NCBI GenBank assembly: GCA_965140585.1
Contig: OZ223270.1
Location: forward strand, 160,001 to 224,000
DNA from: Spirochaetia bacterium
GTDB lineage: Bacteria > Spirochaetota > Spirochaetia > UBA9216
Direction: 5' to 3'
DNA: 64,000 bases
Shown here in pieces: positions 1,044-11,322 of this stretch (position 1 is its first letter; each line of letters begins with the position of its first letter). The position numbers were made by a program, and so were the translations under genes. The notes beneath the pieces were generated by a model. It did no database searches and was not told the origin of the DNA. It was given only the letters and a program-made list of their open reading frames with translations.

Positions 1044-2398
1044 AGTTTCCTAAAGTAGGCACAAAAAAAACAGTAAACCCGGCTGAAAAATCAGCTATAA
1101 TAATCCTTGGGGCATCCGGAGACCTGGCAAAGCGAAAGCTGATACCCGCGCTCTCGGTTCTCCGGGAACAGAACATGATAAGCGGCGATTCGGTAATAAT
1201 CGGAGAAGGCAGAAGCGCATTTACCGACGAAAGCTTCCGCAAGCGTTTCGAGATTACAGATGAATTTGCAGCCCAGATGTTCTATTATCAGGGGCTGAAA
1301 GGCCTTAGAGAATACACCCTTACAAAGGGAGAGTTTAAGCGAATCATCATATTCCTCTCACTCCCCCCTGAGAGTTACGCAGGAACCATAGAGGAACTCT
1401 ATATCGAGGGATTCCGCAACGAAGTGAGTATAGTCATAGAAAAGCCTTTCGGACGCGATTACGACAGCGCCAGGGCTCTCAATGAAGCTATTCACAGATA
1501 CTACCCGGAGGACCAGATATTCAGAAGTGATCACTACCTTGCCAAGGAAGCAGTCCAGAACATCCTGATTTTCCGCTTTGCAAACTCTATCTTTGAAGCA
1601 TCATGGAACAGCAACTACATCGAATCAATCCAGATTAACGCTTTTGAATCGATTGGAGTGGAGGAACGGGGACAGTACTTTGACACATCCGGTTCAATCC
1701 GTGACATGATTCAGAATCACCTGTTACAGATGCTCTGTCTGATCACTATGGATCCGCCTGTGAGCCTTGACCCCGAAGATATCCGTATCCAGAAATTCAG
1801 CATATTGAAATCAATTGAAATTGAAGAATTCAAACGGGGACAGTATATAGGCTATACCGAAGAGAAGGATGTGAACCCGGATTCAAATACTGAAACATGG
1901 GCCGAGATGAAGCTCAAGATAAACAACCACCGCTGGGCGGGAACCCCGGTTTACATCAGGACAGGAAAGGCCCTGGACAGAAAGGGAACTGAAATCGGAC
2001 TGAGATTCAGAAAACGCCCCCACGCCCTCTACAACCCTCCCGAGGGAACCGAGGCCAACGAGATCATCTTCAAGGTTCAGCCCTCAGAAGGCATCATCCT
2101 GCAGCTGACAGGCAAGAACCCTGGAATGGAACTTCAGCTGAGCCGTACAGACATGGCATTCTGTTATAACGACAGCTTTGACGAAGATATCCCTGAAGCC
2201 TACCAGAAACTGCTGATGGACGCTCTGCGCGGCGATCATACAATCTTTGTAAGTTCACGCGAGACTGAAATGGCCTGGCAGAAAATCGCGGAGGCACTGG
2301 ACAAGGGAAAACTGATGTTCTACCGGAAGGGAGAAGTCCCCGAGTCAATATTCGGAGACATCTGGATTAACTTTGAGAATTACGCAAATATCTGCTGA
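1040..2398 (+). CDS. zwf: Glucose-6-phosphate 1-dehydrogenase
   Basis: GASGDLAKRKL, IEKPFG, DHYLAKE, RDMIQNH and RTGK motifs; ATGA overlap with pgl. Confidence 0.96.
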   Translation: MKFPKVGTKKTVNPAEKSAIIILGASGDLAKRKLIPALSVLREQNMISGDSVIIGEGRSAFTDESFRKRFEITDEFAAQMFYYQGLKGLREYTLTKGEFKRIIIFLSLPPESYAGTIEELYIEGFRNEVSIVIEKPFGRDYDSARALNEAIHRYYPEDQIFRSDHYLAKEAVQNILIFRFANSIFEASWNSNYIESIQINAFESIGVEERGQYFDTSGSIRDMIQNHLLQMLCLITMDPPVSLDPEDIRIQKFSILKSIEIEEFKRGQYIGYTEEKDVNPDSNTETWAEMKLKINNHRWAGTPVYIRTGKALDRKGTEIGLRFRKRPHALYNPPEGTEANEIIFKVQPSEGIILQLTGKNPGMELQLSRTDMAFCYNDSFDEDIPEAYQKLLMDALRGDHTIFVSSRETEMAWQKIAEALDKGKLMFYRKGEVPESIFGDIWINFENYANIC

Positions 2399-3557
2399 CC
2401 AGGTAAAATACCAGGCTTAAAGCTACCGAAACTGCTGATATAACGTAAATTGCCGAATACCCAAGGGAGTTTGATATATAGCCAAGCAGTATCGAGCCTC
2501 CGCCGACCCCCAGATCCAGAGCGATGTAAAAGGTAGCATTTGCAGCGCCCCTTCTTTTCTGCTCAACATCCTTTACTGCTATTGCGTTGAATGTCGGCTG
2601 AAGAGTTCCGTAGCCTACACCGTATAATGCAGCAGCTACAGAAAAGGCCAGCATTGATTTTGCACCGGCAATCATCAGCAGGGCAATTACGGCAAGAACC
2701 ATCCCTGGTATTATTACTACCTGATACCCGAATCGGTCTCCGGCCTTACCGGCAAAAAGCCTTGAAAGGATCACCATTACAGGATATATGACAAAGAAGA
2801 ACTGCATGTTTTCAATTCCAAGGGAATAACCGTAAGAGGCAACAAAGGTTATCAGTGCGCCATAGGAAAGCGATGCCAGAACCATCATGATTGATGCTGG
2901 AATTGCCTTGGTTTCGATAGAGTATACCTTTTTTAGAAGTGCAAGCCCCTTTACCGGTGTATCATCGTGATGAAGGGCTCTCTTATCCTTACTCAGAAAA
3001 AAGGCGAGAATCACCGAAACGCAGCTTATCGGAACAATTATCATAAAAAGAAAATCGTAGCCGAACGCGCCGAGAATTGTCAGACCGATCAGCGGGCCGA
3101 CGGCATTACAAACTGTTACAACTACTGCATAGTAGCCTATTCCCTCAGACATTCTTGATTTGGGGACAAGGTCGGTAACGATTGTAGCAAAAGCGGTTGA
3201 GATTATTGAAAAACCGATGCCCTGTATCAATCTTATTACAAGGTTAAGAGTAACCGAATCTGTGAAATTGAGCATGATAACACCGGCTATCATCGGAATA
3301 AATCCAAGAAGGGTTATCATCTTTCTGCCGTGGTTATCGAGAAAATAGCCGATTACCGGGCGCATTAACATCGCAGAGAAGGAGTAAATACCCGTTGCAA
3401 GCCCGGCAGCTGTATTATTGCCGCCGATGGATTTTATGTAAAGCGGCATGGCTACCAGAAGGATAAAATGTACAATAAAGGATGAGAGGTTAAGCAACAT
3501 TATCAGGTTGTATTGGCGCGTCCAGAGCTTTTCGGACGGGTGGTTAGTCATATTCAT
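2367..3557 (-). CDS. MFS transporter
   Basis: About 12 hydrophobic segments; motif-A-like G..LDNHGRK and GKAGDRFG; 3' end overlaps zwf by 32 nt. Confidence 0.9.
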   Translation of the reverse strand: MNMTNHPSEKLWTRQYNLIMLLNLSSFIVHFILLVAMPLYIKSIGGNNTAAGLATGIYSFSAMLMRPVIGYFLDNHGRKMITLLGFIPMIAGVIMLNFTDSVTLNLVIRLIQGIGFSIISTAFATIVTDLVPKSRMSEGIGYYAVVVTVCNAVGPLIGLTILGAFGYDFLFMIIVPISCVSVILAFFLSKDKRALHHDDTPVKGLALLKKVYSIETKAIPASIMMVLASLSYGALITFVASYGYSLGIENMQFFFVIYPVMVILSRLFAGKAGDRFGYQVVIIPGMVLAVIALLMIAGAKSMLAFSVAAALYGVGYGTLQPTFNAIAVKDVEQKRRGAANATFYIALDLGVGGGSILLGYISNSLGYSAIYVISAVSVALSLVFYLVSRYLRNSQS

Positions 3558-3694: not shown

Positions 3695-3722
3695 TTGTTT
3701 ATATATGAATCAGTGATATAAT
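3695..3722 (+). promoter_or_regulatory. Sigma70-type promoter of the small peptide gene
   Basis: TTGTTT(3695)-N16-TATAAT(3717) with extended TG at 3714. Confidence 0.6.
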
Positions 3723-3778
3723 ATATGCTATATAGGTATAAAATCTATTTTGATTCTTATATCTTGGGAGGAAATATT

Positions 3779-3988
3779 ATGAAAAAAACATATACAAAAC
3801 CGGTTGTTCAAAGCGAAAAACTGGAGTTCGGTGTATTCGGACGCTACCACATCGTATCAAACGGGAGACCGGGAAATAACGGTATTGGGAATGCATTTGG
3901 ATTTCCGGGTAATGATCCGAACAAATTCGGCAACAACGGAAAGGACCATGATTTTCACTGGCCTTTTGGAAGACATAAAAATCCATAA
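3779..3988 (+). CDS. 69-aa RiPP-precursor-like peptide (YxxP leader, Gly/Asn/Phe-rich core)
   Basis: GGAGG at 3767-3771, ATG at 3779; MKKTYTKPVVQSEKLEFG...; promoter upstream and terminator downstream. Confidence 0.75.
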   Translation: MKKTYTKPVVQSEKLEFGVFGRYHIVSNGRPGNNGIGNAFGFPGNDPNKFGNNGKDHDFHWPFGRHKNP

Positions 3989-4010
3989 TCAGTTTTATTT
4001 GCATAATCAG

Positions 4011-4040
4011 GGAAGCCGGTACAGACGGCTTCCTTTTTTA
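4011..4040 (+). terminator. Intrinsic terminator after the peptide gene
   Basis: GGAAGCCG-N7-CGGCTTCC followed by T6. Confidence 0.85.
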
Positions 4041-4107
4041 TTTTCAAGCCCTTCTTTTTTCACTCTTTTAATGCAATACTTATTTTATCGGGAACAAGGA
4101 TTAGAAA

Positions 4108-5985
4108 TTGGGAATTCTAAAAAAGCGAATCAGTGATCTTCGTCTCATCACACGTACGGTAAAGCTTGTATGGAACTGCTGCAGGGGCCTGACTGCGACA
4201 TCATTTCTGATCATGTTTCTTCAGGGCGCCCTGCCTATTGTTCCTGTGTACATCATAAAACTGATAGTTGACGCAGTTGCAGCACAGCAGCCTTTTGGTC
4301 GGATTCTGCCCTATGTTATCGCAATCGGCGGAGCTATAATCCTGAATGCCCTTTTAAAATCTGTGGGCGGCTACATAAGCAATAAGCAGTCTCTTATACT
4401 GGTAGACTACATGCAGGAACTGATTCAGGACAAGTCGCTTGAACTGGACCTGTCATTTTATGATAATCCCGATTTTTTTGATAAAATGCACCGTGCCCAG
4501 CAGGAAGCGCCTACCCTGCCGGCCCAGATTATAAATAACCTTATGGGAATCATCTGCTCCGGCATTTCAACCGCAGGGATAGCGGGACTGCTTATAGTTA
4601 CCCTGCCCTGGTATATCGTAATCATCCTTGTTATAACAGCCCTGCCAATGGTAGCTGTCAGGATCATTAATTCCAAAAGATCCTACGCCTGGTATATGAA
4701 GAACACTACCGCAGCCCGGCGCGTAGATTACCTTAACTGGCTGCTTACAGGACAGGGCCATGCAAGAGAACTGCGGCTGCTTGGACTTGGAAAGCTATTG
4801 AAGGAACGGTCTCAAAAAGGCAGGGAATACCTGCGCAGCGGCAGGCTGGAGCTTTCTGCAAAACGGACAAGAGGTGAGTTTATCACAACGGGGATTCAGG
4901 CTGCGGTCACCGCCGGGCTTATCGGCTACTTCGCGTACAACAGCATCTATTCCGACGGCTCACTCGGAGATCTGGTGCTGTTTTTTCAGGCTATACAGAA
5001 GGGACAGCAGGTTTTAGGCGATCTGCTTCAGGGCGGAGCGGTATTGTATGAATCGACACTCTACCTTCAGAATGTCTACGATTTCATGGACCTTGAACCA
5101 GCAATCAGAAAGAATGAAAATAAAAGCTCCGCAGAAACAGGCAGCCCGGAAGATAGCAACAGCGGTATAATTGTGAAAAATGTCAGCTTCTCCTACCCGG
5201 GAATCGACAGAAAGGTGCTGCAGAATATTAACATAGAAGCCGGACCAAAGGAGTTTATCGCGATTGTCGGGGACAACGGTGCGGGAAAATCAACACTGAC
5301 AAAACTGCTTTCCAGATTTTATGACCCCTCAGATGGAGTGATTATGTTAAACGGCAGCGACATGCGTGCACTGAATGATGAATCCATACGTTCCTGCATG
5401 GCCGTCCTTCAGCAGGATTTTACCGACTACCACTACTCTGCTGCAGAGAACATCTGGCTTGGAGATATATCAAAAGAAAAAAATGCAGAGAACATTGCTC
5501 AAGCCGCCCGGAAGGCTGGAATTGATAAAACACTTCAAAGCCTTCCGCAGGGATACGACACAATGCTCGGACGCTACATAGAAGACGGCAGCCAGCTAAG
5601 CGGCGGCCAATGGAAGAAGCTTGCCCTCGCCCGAGCCCTTTTTCGCGAAGCACCCATCGTTATCCTGGATGAACCGACGGCCAACCTCGATCCGATAGCC
5701 GAAACCGAGTTTATCGACAGCTTGCCCGACCTGGCGGAAGGAAGATGCCTGATCATGATCAGCCACAAAATAGCCTCTGTAAGGCAGGCTGACAGGATTT
5801 ATGTCATGCGTGACGGGCGGGTTATTGAAACAGGCAGTCATGACGAGCTTATCAGGCAAAACGGATACTATGCAGGACTCTACCACACCCAGCTGCGCCA
5901 GATGGGGAAATCAGAAAATGACAAAGATATTATTAATGCAGGAATTGAGACCCTGCGTGAGTCGACTAAAGATGATGAATGGTAA
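4108..5985 (+). CDS. ABC exporter (fused TMD+NBD)
   Basis: N-terminal TM helices, Walker A GDNGAGKS, LSGGQW, ILDEPT; TTG start. Confidence 0.92.
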   Translation: MGILKKRISDLRLITRTVKLVWNCCRGLTATSFLIMFLQGALPIVPVYIIKLIVDAVAAQQPFGRILPYVIAIGGAIILNALLKSVGGYISNKQSLILVDYMQELIQDKSLELDLSFYDNPDFFDKMHRAQQEAPTLPAQIINNLMGIICSGISTAGIAGLLIVTLPWYIVIILVITALPMVAVRIINSKRSYAWYMKNTTAARRVDYLNWLLTGQGHARELRLLGLGKLLKERSQKGREYLRSGRLELSAKRTRGEFITTGIQAAVTAGLIGYFAYNSIYSDGSLGDLVLFFQAIQKGQQVLGDLLQGGAVLYESTLYLQNVYDFMDLEPAIRKNENKSSAETGSPEDSNSGIIVKNVSFSYPGIDRKVLQNINIEAGPKEFIAIVGDNGAGKSTLTKLLSRFYDPSDGVIMLNGSDMRALNDESIRSCMAVLQQDFTDYHYSAAENIWLGDISKEKNAENIAQAARKAGIDKTLQSLPQGYDTMLGRYIEDGSQLSGGQWKKLALARALFREAPIVILDEPTANLDPIAETEFIDSLPDLAEGRCLIMISHKIASVRQADRIYVMRDGRVIETGSHDELIRQNGYYAGLYHTQLRQMGKSENDKDIINAGIETLRESTKDDEW

Positions 5986-6172: not shown

Positions 6173-7783
6173 CTACTTTGAGCTCTTCTTTTCTATTGCG
6201 CCCTTAATGAATCCGGCGAAAAGCGGATGCGGGTCTGTGGGCTTTGAGGTAAACTCGGGGTGGAACTGTACACCGGTGCTCCAGCAGTGATTCGGCCACT
6301 GTACAGCCTCAACAAGCTGGTTGCCGGGAGTAGTTCCACCGATGATAAGGCCTGATTCTTCAAGGATCTCACGGTATTTGACCGAAACCTCGTAGCGGTG
6401 TCGGTGACGCTCATGGATGAGCGGTGTGCCGTAGCATTCGCGGATAAGACTTCCGTCTTTGAGGTGAGATTCGCTTCGGCCAAGACGCATTGTTCCGCCG
6501 TAGTCCTTAACATCAAGCTGCTCTTCAAGCAGACTGATTACCGGAGCCTCGCATTCCGGCTGGAACTCGGTACTGTTTGCATCGGCAAGGCCGGCTACAA
6601 AGCGGGCGTACTCGATTACCATTATCTGCATTCCAAGACAGATTCCCAGAATCGGAATATTTTTGGTTCTTGCATAGTTGGCCGCAAGAATCATTCCTTC
6701 AATACCGCGCTTTCCGAAGCCTCCGGGAATGAGGATTCCGTCGAGATTATCAAGCTGCTTGAGCTGCTTGGTATCCTTTTCAAGATTCTCGGAATCAACC
6801 CTTACAATTTCAACCTTCACTCCGTTGGCTATTCCACCGTGGCAGAGTGCTTCATTGATGGACTTATAGGCATCGTTGAGTTCAACGTACTTGCCGACCA
6901 TTCCGATTTTGATCGTATCTGCCGGATTATTATAAACTTCCGACACCTTTTCCCACTTGGATTTATCAGGCTCAACATATTCAAGCCCTAGTCTTTTGAG
7001 AACTATACGATCGAATCCCTGATTGGCATAAACCAGAGGGATTTCATAAATTGTTCCGTCTACGTCATATGCAGAGATTACACAGTCCTTATCGACATTG
7101 GTAAAAAGCGAAATTTTACGCTTCATCTCGTCATCAAGCGGCTTTGTTGAACGGCAGAGGAGAACATCAGGCTGAATACCTATCTCACGAAGCTCCTTGG
7201 CCGAATGCTGGGTAGGTTTGGTTTTAAATTCCTCGCCTGCGACCATCGGCACGAGTGTAAGATGAACAAAAACAACGTTCTCGCGTCCGACATCCGAGCT
7301 GAACTGCCTTGCAGCTTCCAGATAGGGAACCGATTCGATATCACCAACGGTTCCTCCTACTTCGACTATTGTAACTTCAGAGTCATTGTCGTTACCCGCA
7401 AGTGAAATTCTGCGTTTGATCTCGTCAGTTATATGGGGAATAACCTGAACAGTGCGTCCCAGGTAGCGTCCCTCACGTTCCTTTCTTATAACTTCCTGAT
7501 AAATCTGGCCGGTGGTTATTGTCTGATTCTTTGTGACCGGTGATGATGTGAACCGGAAATAGTTTCCAAGGTCCAGATCGGTTTCAGCCCCGTCATCTGT
7601 TACGTAAACTTCTCCATGCTGGAAGGGGCTCATAGTTCCGGCATCAACATTCAGATATGGATCAATCTTGACCATGCAGACCCTCAGTCCATGACATTCT
7701 AACAGGGTCCCGATAGAGGCCGCAGCGACCCCTTTACCCAGGCTGGAACAGACTCCGCCCGTTACAAAAACATACTTCTTCAT
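6173..7783 (-). CDS. pyrG: CTP synthase
   Basis: KYVFVTGGVCSSLGKG, KTKPTQ, GICLGMQ and QFHPEF motifs. Confidence 0.98.
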   Translation of the reverse strand: MKKYVFVTGGVCSSLGKGVAAASIGTLLECHGLRVCMVKIDPYLNVDAGTMSPFQHGEVYVTDDGAETDLDLGNYFRFTSSPVTKNQTITTGQIYQEVIRKEREGRYLGRTVQVIPHITDEIKRRISLAGNDNDSEVTIVEVGGTVGDIESVPYLEAARQFSSDVGRENVVFVHLTLVPMVAGEEFKTKPTQHSAKELREIGIQPDVLLCRSTKPLDDEMKRKISLFTNVDKDCVISAYDVDGTIYEIPLVYANQGFDRIVLKRLGLEYVEPDKSKWEKVSEVYNNPADTIKIGMVGKYVELNDAYKSINEALCHGGIANGVKVEIVRVDSENLEKDTKQLKQLDNLDGILIPGGFGKRGIEGMILAANYARTKNIPILGICLGMQIMVIEYARFVAGLADANSTEFQPECEAPVISLLEEQLDVKDYGGTMRLGRSESHLKDGSLIRECYGTPLIHERHRHRYEVSVKYREILEESGLIIGGTTPGNQLVEAVQWPNHCWSTGVQFHPEFTSKPTDPHPLFAGFIKGAIEKKSSK

Positions 7784-7888: not shown

Positions 7889-8182
7889 CTAAGAAGCTTT
7901 TATCTGAGGTATTCTTTCTAATTCGTAAGCGATTTTTTCTCTTTCTTTTCTTAGATCATATTCATCCTGAATCCCTAACCAAAAATCTGCAGAATTTCCA
8001 AAATATTTAGAAAATCTCAAAGCTGTATCTGCTGTTATCTTTCTATTGCCCTTTATTATCTGGGAAACCCTTGTGGCTGGTACATTGGTGTCTTTAGCTA
8101 ATCGATAAGCTGAAATATTCAAGGGAATGAGAAATTCTTCTAACAAAATCTCTCCAGGCGTTATTGTAGGTATTCTTTCCAT
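7889..8182 (-). CDS. higA: HigA family antitoxin (XRE HTH)
   Basis: TPGEILLEEFL..ITADTALRFSKYFG.SADFWLGIQ; alternative start at 8194. Confidence 0.92.
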   Translation of the reverse strand: MERIPTITPGEILLEEFLIPLNISAYRLAKDTNVPATRVSQIIKGNRKITADTALRFSKYFGNSADFWLGIQDEYDLRKEREKIAYELERIPQIKAS

Positions 8183-8195
8183 ATCTTCACCCATG

Positions 8196-8477
8196 CTAAT
8201 GATAATCTGTTATTTCTACATCACTTGCAGAACCGTTACTCCAATGAAAGCATATTCTCCATTGATTATTTATTCTTATGCTATATTGGCCCTTCCTATT
8301 TCCAGTTAATTGTTCTAAATAATTTCCCGGAGGAACTCTTAAATCAATTACATCTTTCGCTCGATGAATCATGATAAGCTTTCTCAAATCTATTCTCTGA
8401 ATATCTTTAGGAAATCGTTTTGAATAAATTTCTTCCCAGATTTTTCTGGTTTCTTTATCTTTAAATGATTCAATCAC
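8196..8477 (-). CDS. higB: HigB family toxin (RelE/ParE superfamily)
   Basis: IESFKDKET..LRVPPGNYLE.L.G.RKGQYSIRINNQWRICF..EITDYH; toxin precedes antitoxin; GTG start at 8477. Confidence 0.92.
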   Translation of the reverse strand: MIESFKDKETRKIWEEIYSKRFPKDIQRIDLRKLIMIHRAKDVIDLRVPPGNYLEQLTGNRKGQYSIRINNQWRICFHWSNGSASDVEITDYH

Positions 8478-8484
8478 TAAAAAA

Positions 8485-8519
8485 ATAATAACGCCTAACA
8501 TTATTAACGCCAAGAGTTA
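8485..8519 (-). promoter_or_regulatory. higBA promoter with two tandem operator-like imperfect palindromes
   Basis: TTGGCG-N17-TATTAT-7nt-GTG; TAACGCCTAACATTA (8489-8503) and TAACGCCAAGAGTTA (8505-8519). Confidence 0.6.
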
Positions 8520-8556
8520 ATATATTTTCGAATGTTAAAAAATCGAAGCCAACTAC

Positions 8557-8684
8557 TAAAAAATCAAAAGTGAGAAACTTTTGATTTTTATACCTTAGAT
8601 GTAAAGGAACAATATTTTTGCAATTTATTGCTAAAATATTGTTCAAGTTAAAAAATCAGAGCGTACCGGCTCTGATTTTTTAAC
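8557..8684. repeat. Three-hairpin dispersed element, copy A
   Basis: Stems 8559-71/8577-89, 8607-18/8633-44 and 8647-62/8669-84; linker ACCTTAGATGTAAAG at 8592-8606. Confidence 0.8.
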
Positions 8685-8707
8685 ACAATCCTAACAAATT
8701 TCTAACA
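8680..8707 (+). promoter_or_regulatory. Pho-box-like direct repeats upstream of pstC
   Basis: TTAACA, CTAACA, CTAACA at 8680, 8691 and 8702 (11-bp period), resembling PhoP/PhoB boxes; directly upstream of the pst-pho operon. Confidence 0.7.
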
Positions 8708-8761
8708 ATTCAAGAACGCTCTGCTAATAGTTTATACCTGCAAACTATTAGGAGATATATT

Positions 8762-9673
8762 TTGAAACAAAACTCTGATAACCAGAGAAAGATGCTTAAA
8801 GATATTGGCCGCAGAGCCGCACAGGAAAGAAGTGTTGAGATGATTCTTCTGGTCTGTGCGCTTGTTTCGGTTGTAAGCGTACTGTTCATATCGTTTTTCA
8901 TCTTTCAGAGAGGTCTTCCGCTTTTCAAGTCTGTCGGCGTCTTTGAGTTTCTGCTCGGAACTGACTGGTCACCTTCAAATGATACAAATCCTTCGTACGG
9001 AATACTTCCTTTTATTGTGGGATCGATATATGTAACCCTCGGCTCACTCGTACTGGCGGTTCCCATAGGCATTTTAACCGCTGTATTTATGGCTGAGATT
9101 GCAGGCACGAAGGTAGCAGACTTCATGAGAAGTGTTGTTCAGCTGCTTGCAGGAATACCCTCAGTCATTTATGGATTCTTCGGCGTTATAGTGATTTCAA
9201 AGTTCATACGTGAAACCTTCGGGGGTACCGGCTACAGCATGCTTTCGGGGTCCATCATCCTTGCAATCATGGTTCTTCCTACAATAATTAACATCACCGA
9301 GGTTTCTATAACTTCCCTTCCCCGAAACATCAAGGAAGGCTCACTTGCTCTCGGCGGTACAAGGTGGCAGACTATAATCAGGGTACAGATTCCGGCCGCT
9401 AAATCCGGAATAATTGCCGGGATTGTACTTGGTATGGGCCGGGCGCTTGGAGAGACAATGGCGGTTCTGATGGTTGCCGGTAATGCACCGATTATGCCGC
9501 AGGGACCTCTGTCCAAGGTGCGGACACTCACAATGAACATTGTAACCGATATGGGATACGCATCCGGAGATCATATGACGGCACTTTTCACAACGAGTAT
9601 CGTACTCTTCCTCTTCATCCTGATACTAAACCTTCTGGTCAACCTCCTGAAGGGCAAGGCGGAGGCCGTATAA
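8762..9673 (+). CDS. pstC: Phosphate ABC transporter permease PstC
   Basis: LAGIPSVIYGFFG and GRALGETMAV motifs; SD GGAG before TTG start. Confidence 0.95.
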   Translation: MKQNSDNQRKMLKDIGRRAAQERSVEMILLVCALVSVVSVLFISFFIFQRGLPLFKSVGVFEFLLGTDWSPSNDTNPSYGILPFIVGSIYVTLGSLVLAVPIGILTAVFMAEIAGTKVADFMRSVVQLLAGIPSVIYGFFGVIVISKFIRETFGGTGYSMLSGSIILAIMVLPTIINITEVSITSLPRNIKEGSLALGGTRWQTIIRVQIPAAKSGIIAGIVLGMGRALGETMAVLMVAGNAPIMPQGPLSKVRTLTMNIVTDMGYASGDHMTALFTTSIVLFLFILILNLLVNLLKGKAEAV

Positions 9674-11322
9674 TGAATGTAACTTTTCAGGCAGAACCGG
9701 TAGATTCCAAAAATATTTTAAATGATATTCTGAAACGCGAGAAAAAAAAGGCTGAAACAAACTATATAAAAACCAACCGGATGAACAACCTTGCAACAGG
9801 GCTGCTCTGGGCAGCGGCTATAGTGACCTTCGGAATACTGGTTTATATTCTAGGATTCATCCTTTACCGCGGTTTCCGTTCAGACAATATCCTTGAACAG
9901 GATCACGTGTACATCAAGACAACTGAAACTCCCCTGCCCTGGCTTGAAGGCGATTCAGTTGTAATAGTCAACAAGGATGTCAGGATAAAGGAGATAAGCT
10001 ACTCCGATTTAAGCGGGCTTATCGGCGGTAAGCCGTCAAACTGGGGAAATATCAACGAACAGGACCTTGACGTTTTTCCCTATCTCCCGGATGGCGCCGA
10101 AGGCAAGACGGGAAAGAATATGACCTTTATGCCCTCAACTGCTGACATCATAAGTGCGGTAGCATCCCAAAAGGGCGGACTGGGAATAATTTCAGCGGAT
10201 AACGCCGAAACATCGGATTTATCTGACGTCAGAATCCTTCCGGTTATTCCCTTCTCAATTGCTGTTAACAGCTCGGTCCTTGAGATTCAGAATAATATAA
10301 AGATAAGGTTTACCGATGAAGACGGACTCAAGGCTCTTTTCAGCGGAAAGATTACAAACTGGCAGGACGCAGGCGGCATAGACCTGGCGGTGACACCAAT
10401 AATCCCTCCGGCCGGCAGTAAGGAATACGATGAATATCTGAGGCTTACAGGCCTTACGGCGAAGTCACTTCCTGCAAATGCAGTAAAAAGCACTTCGGAT
10501 ACCGACTATATTGAAAAACTCAACAGCACAAGCGGAGCGGTTGGTCTTGTGTTCACCGAAACAGCGGATGAGCTCAAACTGGATATTCTGAATTACCAGT
10601 ACCGGAAAACCGGAATGAACCTGCAGTGGTGGTTTCTCTTTGAAGAACCCAAGCGAGCTGGCCGTGTCGGCGGTATTTCATCGATTGTAGTTAACACGAT
10701 TTACATGGTGCTTCTGACAGTCCTGTTTTCAACCCCGATAGGCATAGGGGCAGCTGTTTACCTCACCGAGTATGCAAAGCAGGGAATACTGATAAAAATA
10801 CTGAGACTCGGAACAGAGACTCTGGCCGGTATTCCGTCAATCATCTTCGGTCTTTTCGGCTTCATAGTCTTTGTAGGATACATGCACCTGGGAATAGGGC
10901 TGCTTTCAGGAACGCTGACTCTGACGCTTATGATTCTGCCGACAATCATCAGAACAGCGGAAGAGGCAATAAAGGGTGTTCCGCAGTCGTTCAGGGCCGG
11001 AAGCCTTGCGCTTGGAGCCGGCAAGTGGCAGACAATATACAAGGTTGTAATACCAGCCGCAGCACCGGGAATACTCACCGGCGTAATCCTTGCAATCGGA
11101 CGTGCGGTCGGCGAAACAGCAGCCCTGCTTTTCACTATGGGCTTTGACTACCGGAGGGCAGAAAACCTTTCAACATCAGCCCGTGTCCTCTCAACCCATT
11201 TGTACCAGCTTGTCAAGGAAGGTATTTCCTTTGACCGGGCATTCGCAACAGCAACAATCCTTATAGTGATAATTCTTATTGTTAACGTTCTTTCTACAAG
11301 ACTCATCAGAAGGAAATACTGA
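9673..11322 (+). CDS. pstA: Phosphate ABC permease PstA with a large inserted extracytoplasmic PstS-like region
   Basis: C-terminal LAGIPSIIFGLFG and GRAVGETA; ~240-aa insertion after TM1 containing GKPSNW and GKITNWQDAGG. Confidence 0.9.
   Translation: MNVTFQAEPVDSKNILNDILKREKKKAETNYIKTNRMNNLATGLLWAAAIVTFGILVYILGFILYRGFRSDNILEQDHVYIKTTETPLPWLEGDSVVIVNKDVRIKEISYSDLSGLIGGKPSNWGNINEQDLDVFPYLPDGAEGKTGKNMTFMPSTADIISAVASQKGGLGIISADNAETSDLSDVRILPVIPFSIAVNSSVLEIQNNIKIRFTDEDGLKALFSGKITNWQDAGGIDLAVTPIIPPAGSKEYDEYLRLTGLTAKSLPANAVKSTSDTDYIEKLNSTSGAVGLVFTETADELKLDILNYQYRKTGMNLQWWFLFEEPKRAGRVGGISSIVVNTIYMVLLTVLFSTPIGIGAAVYLTEYAKQGILIKILRLGTETLAGIPSIIFGLFGFIVFVGYMHLGIGLLSGTLTLTLMILPTIIRTAEEAIKGVPQSFRAGSLALGAGKWQTIYKVVIPAAAPGILTGVILAIGRAVGETAALLFTMGFDYRRAENLSTSARVLSTHLYQLVKEGISFDRAFATATILIVIILIVNVLSTRLIRRKY

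Follow-up and report, generated by a model that had tools for sequence, protein, structure and literature searches.

The 64,000-nt stretch of DNA analysed here (the window; positions 160,001 to 224,000 of contig OZ223270.1 in GenBank assembly GCA_965140585.1, from a Spirochaetia bacterium of the UBA9216 lineage) carries a short gene for a 69-amino-acid (aa) peptide and, downstream on the same strand, a gene for an ATP-binding cassette (ABC) exporter. The window lies on contig C7 of a 4.85-Mb genome (G000), which comes in 10 contigs and is 98.5% complete. As argued below, the peptide is very probably the precursor of a linear ribosomally made peptide with post-translational modifications (RiPP) of the type recently described in Bacillota as Linear Polyphosphorylated Peptides (LPPs), with its tailoring enzymes encoded on another contig, C2. 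The elements of the cassette, in window coordinates, are as follows.

3695..3722, plus strand: promoter of the precursor gene, with -35 TTGTTT at 3695-3700, a 16-nt spacer, TG at 3714-3715 and -10 TATAAT at 3717-3722
3767..3771, plus strand: ribosome-binding site GGAGG, 7 nt before the ATG
3779..3988, plus strand: precursor peptide gene (lppA-like), ATG at 3779, 69 aa, stop codon at 3986-3988
3779-3844, plus strand: predicted leader of the precursor, residues 1-21/22, with YxxP at residues 5-8 and GVFG at 18-21, adjoining the invariant Tyr23
Residues 22/23-69 of the same gene, plus strand: predicted core, G/N/F-rich with a cationic aromatic tail
4009..4045, plus strand: intrinsic terminator between the precursor and exporter genes, with a 10-bp stem and a 7-nt loop (stem-loop 4009-4035) and a T-run
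4108..5985, plus strand: ABC exporter (lppD-like, MsbA-like), 625 aa, fused transmembrane and nucleotide-binding domains (TMD and NBD), TTG start preceded by AAGGA

The first-pass annotation of this stretch had described a self-contained unit with an extended -10 promoter, a GGAGG, a terminator and a TMD-NBD exporter, and all of these elements were found as described. On direct reading of the sequence the promoter is of the extended -10 type, and it is absent from the output of the consensus promoter scan because its -35 element matches at only three of six positions. The terminator starts 20 nt past the precursor stop codon and folds with -18.7 kcal/mol (z = -5.5), and none of 200 shuffled sequences was as stable. 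The annotated peptide agrees letter for letter with the translation of 3779-3985, and a recount on this translation gave the same composition, with FG five times, GNNG twice, PGN twice, an HDFHWPF tail and no Cys. Thr is absent beyond residue 6, and the C-terminal residue is Pro.

The exporter matches the Pfam domains ABC_tran (102.6 bits) and ABC_membrane (27 bits). Its best NCBIfam model is MsbA (TIGR02203), at 254 bits below the cut-off of 602, and among solved structures ABCB1/ABCB4 and MsbA come closest. Pfam and NCBIfam scans revealed no N-terminal peptidase (C39) domain, the TMD beginning directly. The peptide itself matched no family in Pfam or NCBIfam at E<=1, and a word-index protein search returned only itself and one relative. 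The genes that flank the cassette were identified by family scans.

2367-3557, minus strand: transporter of the major facilitator superfamily (MFS)
6173-7783, minus strand: CTP synthase (pyrG)

The neighbours are an MFS transporter and a CTP synthase, in agreement with the earlier statement that no RiPP recognition element (RRE), peptidase, cyclase or radical S-adenosylmethionine (radical-SAM) gene is nearby, and no maturase was found among the window's open reading frames (ORFs) and flanking genes, based on the ORF list and Pfam and NCBIfam scans.

A sister genome of the same genus (G001, locus L009) has the same gene order, namely glucose-6-phosphate dehydrogenase, MFS transporter, peptide, ABC exporter and pyrG, with synteny to the window extending over promoter, ORF, terminator and ABC gene. 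The TGnTATAAT of the promoter is kept and the terminator stem is identical. The two precursor peptides are 91% identical, and the codon differences between the two genes comprise 17 synonymous and 6 non-synonymous changes (dN/dS 0.07), which is comparable to the values for the ABC gene (0.065) and the MFS gene (0.046). The precursor ORF is therefore a real gene under purifying selection. The exporter is 94.6% identical at the aa level to the sister copy, and its pairing with the peptide is conserved within the genus. Outside the genus, no orthologue of the exporter was found in the 400 other Spirochaetota genomes of our sample, where the best match is at most 34% identical, and none of the five best matches outside the genus (<=34% identity) is within 1.5 kb of a family peptide. 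Linkage of an exporter homologue to a family peptide was thus seen in the sister genome and not around these five.

In the stretch from the terminator to the ABC start codon, the consensus scan listed nothing that resembles a promoter. A strong terminator combined with the lack of a promoter-like site suggests read-through expression of the exporter, so that the exporter mRNA is probably made by terminator read-through, which would give far more precursor than exporter mRNA. The same arrangement, a short ORF, a strong terminator and an ABC gene on one strand with no promoter-like site before the ABC start, would also fit a regulatory leader ORF, in which ribosome-dependent attenuation at the terminator controls the ABC gene and the peptide has no function. 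We consider this extremely unlikely, since the peptide is under the purifying selection described above, the terminator lies beyond the stop codon without overlapping the ORF, and homologous peptides in six other genomes, introduced below, are found by ABC-2 exporters and maturases, convergently oriented and without this ABC gene downstream.

The peptide belongs to a family that shares its leader. A three-sequence profile searched against 1.84 billion representative proteins gave 11 matches at E<=0.001. Two of these, P0008 (471 aa) and P0010 (1904 aa), were dropped, as they aligned to G/N-rich core positions only, and the other nine (query included), all short peptides (42-69 aa), have this leader in common while their cores diverge. 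In an alignment of 16 sequences, which includes six further peptides from spirochaete genomes, Y5, P8, G18, V19, F20, G21 and Y23 are invariant, and the sequences become variable after about residue 24. The window peptide has a Val at position 10, after Y5 and P8, which completes the motif YxxPxV, and the second half of the family leader reads SEKLExGVFGxY (SEKxExGVFGxY in the alignment consensus). Such a conserved N-terminus in front of a hypervariable C-terminus is the RiPP pattern. Hence, the YxxP leader signature that the first-pass annotation had pointed out is borne out by the invariant Y5 and P8, and the search for homologous leaders that it had proposed returned them, both in the profile search and in six further spirochaete genomes. 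The named family members are all from metagenome-assembled genomes (MAGs) designated 'Spirochaetales bacterium'. A metagenome scan with a two-sequence peptide alignment gave no match, and a scan with a six-sequence alignment gave seven loci.

One metagenome locus, L031, was excluded from the family table, as its peptide has a YTKP leader but lacks GVFG. This peptide (L031:124-315) begins with MKKEYTKPVI and has a Cys-rich core, and a 323-aa distant HprK-like protein (373-1341) is encoded directly after it, which hints at a wider theme of YxKP-leader peptides paired with HprK-like proteins.

LPPs were defined in Bacillota by Popov et al. (Nat Commun 2026, May; PMC13381572), who state that they are restricted to this phylum. 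The clusters encode a signal peptidase I (SpI)-like protein, LppS, an RRE protein, LppB, an HprK-like kinase, LppK, an uncharacterised nucleoside triphosphate (NTP) transferase, LppN, and an MsbA-like exporter, LppD, and no lasso cyclase. The precursor consensus is YxxPxVLxHQxIxFETxxS. LppB contacts the leader Tyr and Pro through Y60, D70 and F74, LppS cuts after T-1 only if LppB presents the leader, and LppK polyphosphorylates Ser3 of the core. LppN was inactive in the authors' host, and the final product and function of LPPs are unknown (PMC13381572).

An equivalent set of enzymes is present in the window's genome. The PqqD family (PF05402), to which discrete RRE proteins belong, has one match over the Pfam cut-off in the whole genome (48.7 bits, C2:364095-364295). 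Its gene is the last of a four-gene operon on contig C2, whose products are listed below.

G000:C2:361542-364301: four-gene operon of overlapping or nearly abutting ORFs, with the PqqD gene last
NTP transferase of the NTP_transf_5 family (PF14907), LppN-like: 389 aa, 89.5 bits
Soluble archaeal/ER-type S26 peptidase, LppS-like: 151 aa, with matches to archaeal-type signal peptidase I and SipW models
HprK-like P-loop kinase, LppK-like: 280 aa, with weak ScmC and HprK_rel_A matches
Discrete PqqD/RRE protein, LppB-like: 93 aa, with lasso_PqqD_Bac as best NCBIfam model (35.8 bits, cut-off 80)

Searching the genome for RRE and S26 peptidase genes had been among the proposed checks, and both were found in this operon, which agrees with the suggestion that maturases are encoded elsewhere, while the description of the precursor as an orphan without maturases fails at the genome level. 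The four operon genes and the peptide gene are each single-copy in the genome, and the four operon proteins are 81-88% identical at the aa level in the sister genome.

Judged from conserved motifs and a structure model, the enzymes of the C2 operon look active. The kinase has an AF2 model with a pLDDT of 95.9, for which Foldseek returned phosphoenolpyruvate carboxykinase (PEPCK) and HprK/P folds, and its GxxGK(S)T P-loop is invariant in 44 homologues. Against NCBIfam, the kinase remains below the cut-offs (ScmC 37.9 versus 125 bits, HprK_rel_A 19.6 versus 200 bits). The peptidase scores 32.3 bits against TIGR02228, under the cut-off of 51.85; its profile matches human SEC11A/C (5e-9) in an alignment that brings together the SGSM Ser, HR and GD motifs, and Ser24, Arg67 and Asp83 are invariant, with His66 in six of seven sequences. 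The DxD motif of the NTP transferase is invariant. When compared with crystal chains, the RRE profile matched TbiB1 (8.6e-15), PbaB1 (1.7e-12) and LppB (9x8z_B, 7.2e-9), and in the alignment with LppB its leader-contacting Y60, D70 and F74 coincide with Y67, D77 and F81, which are invariant in the spirochaete RREs. Natural fusions of S26 and PqqD domains of ~267 aa occur in environmental sequences (P0152-P0183), which argues that peptidase and RRE work together.

A few further observations concern this operon. Just upstream of it lies a 70-aa ORF (L017:7278-7490, plus strand) with a lipoprotein-type signal (...LSAC), an Asp/Thr-rich tail and no YxxP leader. Members of the kinase family (P0012-P0094) carry the precomputed Pfam label PF27840, which is absent from the Pfam copy used and was not found in the literature searched; a newer Pfam release may already name this family. 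Separately, an ESM Atlas search was uninformative, its best score being 0.85, to unnamed clusters.

The link between the peptide and the enzymes emerged from a sample of 401 Spirochaetota genomes, G000 counted. Using a threshold of E<=1e-5, kinase homologues were present in seven of them. For the six other than the window's genome (L025-L030), 14-20 kb around the kinase gene were fetched, and a hidden Markov model (HMM) of the leader alone identified one peptide at each of the six loci (E 6e-14 to 3e-9). In all six, the peptide gene is at most 1.5 kb away from the kinase gene and converges on the operon. The peptide-family profile in turn matched the same seven of 401 genomes and no others. 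The neighbourhoods examined, which were chosen by the kinase gene, thus hold a family peptide in each of the six other genomes, and the leader family and the co-occurring RRE/kinase set together support the earlier proposal of a RiPP precursor with an RRE-binding YxxP leader. Among the metagenome loci, L037 is a complete cluster that includes the peptide, and L032 and L034 are partial. In addition, a JGI contig of 7,238 nt is the source given for both peptide P0003 and kinase P0014, each the closest of its kind outside the genus, and a Logan contig of 4,204 nt for both peptide P0005 and kinase P0030; the equal size and source suggest that the members of each pair are co-located. The gene content of the six related spirochaete loci is as follows.

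Kinase: 6/6 (by selection)
PqqD protein: 6/6
S26-like peptidase: 5/6 (not found in L026); in L027 (478 aa) and L029 (426 aa) it forms a fusion with the kinase
NTP_transf_5 transferase: 4/6
ABC-2 ATPase and permease: 6/6
Radical-SAM/SPASM protein: 4/6

In all six, the precursor gene is a separate unit that converges on the maturase operon, and a separate transcription unit may make the precursor gene easy to relocate. In the window's genome, the precursor is on C7 and the enzymes are on C2, and in the sister genome the kinase and the peptide gene share a contig with 808 kb between them. Around the C2 operon (20 kb), the leader HMM gave no peptide (best E=6), and among the short ORFs there, none that has an N-terminal [YW]xxPx[LVIFA] resembles the family. 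Because of the missing physical linkage, the assignment of the C2 operon to the window peptide rests on co-occurrence and on the single copies of these genes.

Taken together, we conclude that, very probably, the window peptide is an LppA-like, RRE-dependent linear RiPP precursor of LPP type, the adjacent ABC protein is its LppD-like exporter, and the tailoring operon is the one on C2. By analogy, the window cassette would correspond to lppA and lppD, and the C2 operon to lppN, lppS, lppK and lppB. [quoted passage not shown] Two of these likenesses have limits: that between the S26-like protein and LppS is based on the description of the latter as an archaeal-type SpI and not on the LppS sequence, and while the NTP transferase found here belongs to PF14907, the family of LppN is not stated in the sections of PMC13381572 that deal with it. 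The suggestion of an undescribed RiPP class was thus overtaken in May 2026, when the same enzyme set and leader logic were published as LPPs (PMC13381572), and only the spirochaete clade with the GVFGxY leader appears to be unreported. The string 'spirochaet' occurs nowhere in the text and three supplements of that paper, supplementary figures excepted, and the literature searched yielded neither a description of this clade nor a second paper on LPPs.

The clade is a variant of the LPPs in four respects. Firstly, it belongs to another phylum, Spirochaetota. Secondly, the second half of the leader is SEKLExGVFGxY and not LxHQxIxFET|xxS; FET is absent, a core Ser3 is not conserved, and an invariant Tyr stands in its place. 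Thirdly, the precursor and exporter genes are split from the enzyme genes in this genus, unlike the one-cluster layout of LPPs. Finally, the spirochaete relatives have ABC-2 exporters and, in four of six, an extra radical-SAM/SPASM gene, which forms a sub-branch.

In the mechanism that we propose by analogy, the RRE would bind the leader via Y5-x-x-P8-x-V10, and the kinase would phosphorylate a hydroxyl near the leader/core junction, for which Ser27 and the invariant Tyr23 are the candidates. The RRE would then present the junction to the S26-type peptidase, with leader removal after GVFG (Gly21) or one residue further on, the NTP transferase may decorate the phosphate, and a G/N/F-rich peptide of ~47 aa with a cationic aromatic tail would leave the cell via the ABC transporter. 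Signal peptidases usually follow a small-residue rule, which a cut after G21, with Val at -3 and Gly at -1, would fit. Cleavage after residue 22 would put F20 at -3, like F-3 of LppA. Past the junction, Tyr23 and Ser27 are the only hydroxyl residues in the window peptide, Ser27 being the sole Ser of the core, and Ser27 is kept in the closest relatives (YHIVS, YHVVS and YHVST). Nevertheless, we favour Ser27 as the acceptor only weakly, because no Ser position is conserved across the family whereas Tyr23 is invariant.

This raises the alternative that the same recruitment machinery serves another chemistry, in which Tyr23 and not a Ser is modified by the kinase and/or the nucleotidyltransferase, to O-phospho- or O-nucleotidyl-Tyr, in a clade that was assembled independently from lasso-type parts. 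Tyr23 is the sole invariant hydroxyl in the 16 aligned sequences, and this Tyr is also present after GVFG in all 21 tabulated peptides. Counted on the motif given in PMC13381572, Tyr23 lies at +18 from the leader Tyr, which is the offset of the phosphorylated Ser3 in the LPP consensus. A junction-proximal Ser or Thr is missing in P0009, P0011 and L027, and the RRE is nearer to lasso B1 proteins than to LppB. On the other hand, LppK left S3Y and S3T variants unphosphorylated (PMC13381572), 15 of the 21 peptides have a Ser or Thr within five residues of the Tyr, and the Tyr could equally serve as a recognition residue for the peptidase. We regard modification of Tyr23 as unlikely. A similarly low probability is given to the wider version of this idea, according to which the GVFGxY peptides are a separate RiPP lineage that is independent of the Bacillota LPPs and modified on Tyr, with a radical-SAM sub-branch that cross-links the C-terminal Cys-Cys, and in which the precursor gene, always a transcription unit of its own, was thereby able to move from the enzymes and become paired with a new exporter in this genus.

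Several findings weigh against the assignment to the LPP type. None of the components reaches a curated NCBIfam cut-off. The RRE profile scores better on the lasso B1 proteins TbiB1 and PbaB1 than on LppB, so that this RRE is not closer to LppB than to the lasso proteins, and the second half of the leader differs from that of LPPs as outlined above. A conserved junction-proximal Ser is lacking, the first Ser or Thr being 2 to 25 residues from the Tyr in the 21 peptides (Tyr counted as 1). The enzymes and the precursor have no physical linkage in this genome, and the two genomes with the split arrangement share one genus and count as one observation. The peptide-family profile was partly built from the peptides that it matched, six of which were included in it, so the informative part of its agreement with the kinase distribution is the absence of extra genomes. 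The other six spirochaete clusters use ABC-2 exporters instead of an MsbA-like protein, and the evidence for the pairing of exporter and peptide consists of the synteny within the genus and one analogous metagenome arrangement, in which a family peptide is directly preceded by a different fused TMD-NBD ABC gene and no maturase lies within 10 kb (L033 and L035).

This metagenome arrangement also bears on the possibility that the peptide is exported directly and unmodified, as a class-II-bacteriocin-like or signal peptide, either at full length or generically trimmed, with the C2 operon serving another substrate. The window without a maturase, the self-contained cassette of promoter, terminator and exporter, and the cationic aromatic tail of the core, which resembles that of many antimicrobial peptides, point in the same direction. 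We nonetheless judge this to be very improbable. Conservation in the family falls on the N-terminal 23 residues, which carry the RRE-binding YxxP, and the family and the kinase/RRE set are found in the same seven of 401 genomes, adjacent to each other in all six others. Moreover, a search within 20 kb of the C2 operon gave no alternative YxxP-type small ORF, and the peptide and exporter lack a double-glycine motif and a C39 domain. This strict co-occurrence disfavours both the unmodified exported peptide and the reduced cluster that the first-pass annotation had listed as options. Double-glycine-leader bacteriocins share with the cassette a small secreted-peptide gene that adjoins a dedicated ABC exporter, but this class was rejected, as there is no GG at -2/-1 (the leader ends in F-G, with Phe at -2) and the ABC protein has no C39 domain.

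The similarity of the RRE to lasso B1 proteins raises the question whether the peptide is a lasso precursor with its B2 protease and C cyclase encoded elsewhere. The leader has the YxxPxV motif, the best NCBIfam model of the RRE is lasso_PqqD_Bac, albeit at 35.8 bits against a cut-off of 80, and its profile matches TbiB1 and PbaB1. However, no Thr is found at -2 of any plausible cleavage site, in line with the earlier remark that this lasso feature is lacking, and the proposed genome search found neither a B2 protease over the cut-off nor a lasso cyclase: the best match to Transglut_core3 (PF13471, B2) in the genome reaches 14.1 bits, and of two Asn_synthase matches one is an asparagine synthase equivalog (434 versus 267 bits) that fails the lasso cyclase model (197 versus 525 bits), and the other is weak. 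Likewise, neither enzyme was named in the six related clusters by Pfam and blastp, the blastp reference set itself being without cyclase or B2 proteins. We therefore give a lasso peptide virtually no credence.

Phosphorylation does occur among lasso peptides. In paeninodin and pseudomycoidin, an HPr-kinase homologue phosphorylates the linear precursor and a nucleotidyltransferase acts on the phosphate (PMC8498205). As far as these phosphorylated and phosphoglycosylated lasso peptides are described in that source, they share with the system found here a discrete PqqD-type RRE, a [Y/W]xxP leader and an ABC exporter. They differ in that the spirochaete system has no B2 protease or cyclase and has a serine S26-type leader peptidase, and in that the acceptor cannot be a C-terminal Ser because the window peptide ends in Pro. 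Two further systems have the theme of an HprK-like protein and a PqqD protein, with or without a radical-SAM/SPASM protein, namely the SynChlorMet cassette (ScmC/ScmD/ScmE) and the HPr-rel-A system (HprK_rel_A, PqqD_rel_X). The kinase and RRE found here and the radical-SAM proteins of the relatives are not members of either, with scores far below the cut-offs (116-124 bits for the radical-SAM proteins against the ScmE model, cut-off 400). To our knowledge, the products of both systems are unknown.

In the clusters with a radical-SAM gene, metagenome loci included, a Cys is present in the last four residues of the peptide in six of six cases (CCS, CCGG, CCD and FFC), compared to none of four in the clusters without this gene, a count that includes the window and the sister genome, which are kin. 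The relatives' radical-SAM gene has no orthologue in the window's genome, its best match there being 29% identical. A radical-SAM/SPASM-modified peptide (sacti- or ranthipeptide-like) was rejected for the window, as the core has no Cys, the cluster-type radical-SAM orthologue is lacking and the four SPASM genes of this genome lie elsewhere. On one metagenome contig, a protein of the Ntox23 (bacterial toxin 23) family (L032:1409-2362, minus strand) is encoded next to a family peptide and a partial radical-SAM gene.

If the proposed reading is correct, LPP-type logic, with an RRE, an S26-type peptidase, an HprK-like kinase and an NTP transferase, would extend beyond Bacillota into Spirochaetota, and homologues are also named in Krumholzibacteria and Latescibacteria MAGs. 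The clade would offer a natural comparison of how peptidase and kinase read their sites, FET|xxS on one side and GVFG|xY on the other, and the relatives with an added radical-SAM/SPASM gene and C-terminal CC(S/G) motifs point to unexplored hybrid chemistry. RiPP mining that is based on clusters misses split systems such as this one, in which 808 kb separate precursor and enzymes in the sister genome, and in the window's genome the two lie on different contigs.

Two side observations were made elsewhere in the window. Between pyrG and the pst operon, the minus strand of 7889-8513 encodes a HigB-like toxin (8196-8513) and a helix-turn-helix (HTH) antitoxin (7889-8194). This toxin-antitoxin pair lies in a low-GC stretch (0.31-0.34 at 8001-9000) and is probably a small mobile insertion. 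Further downstream, at 9673-11322 on the plus strand, a PstA-like permease of 549 aa has a PBP_like_2 (phosphate-binding-protein-like) segment at approximately residues 193-301, ahead of its BPD_transp_1 domain; this segment is apparently a periplasmic domain gained by fusion or insertion.

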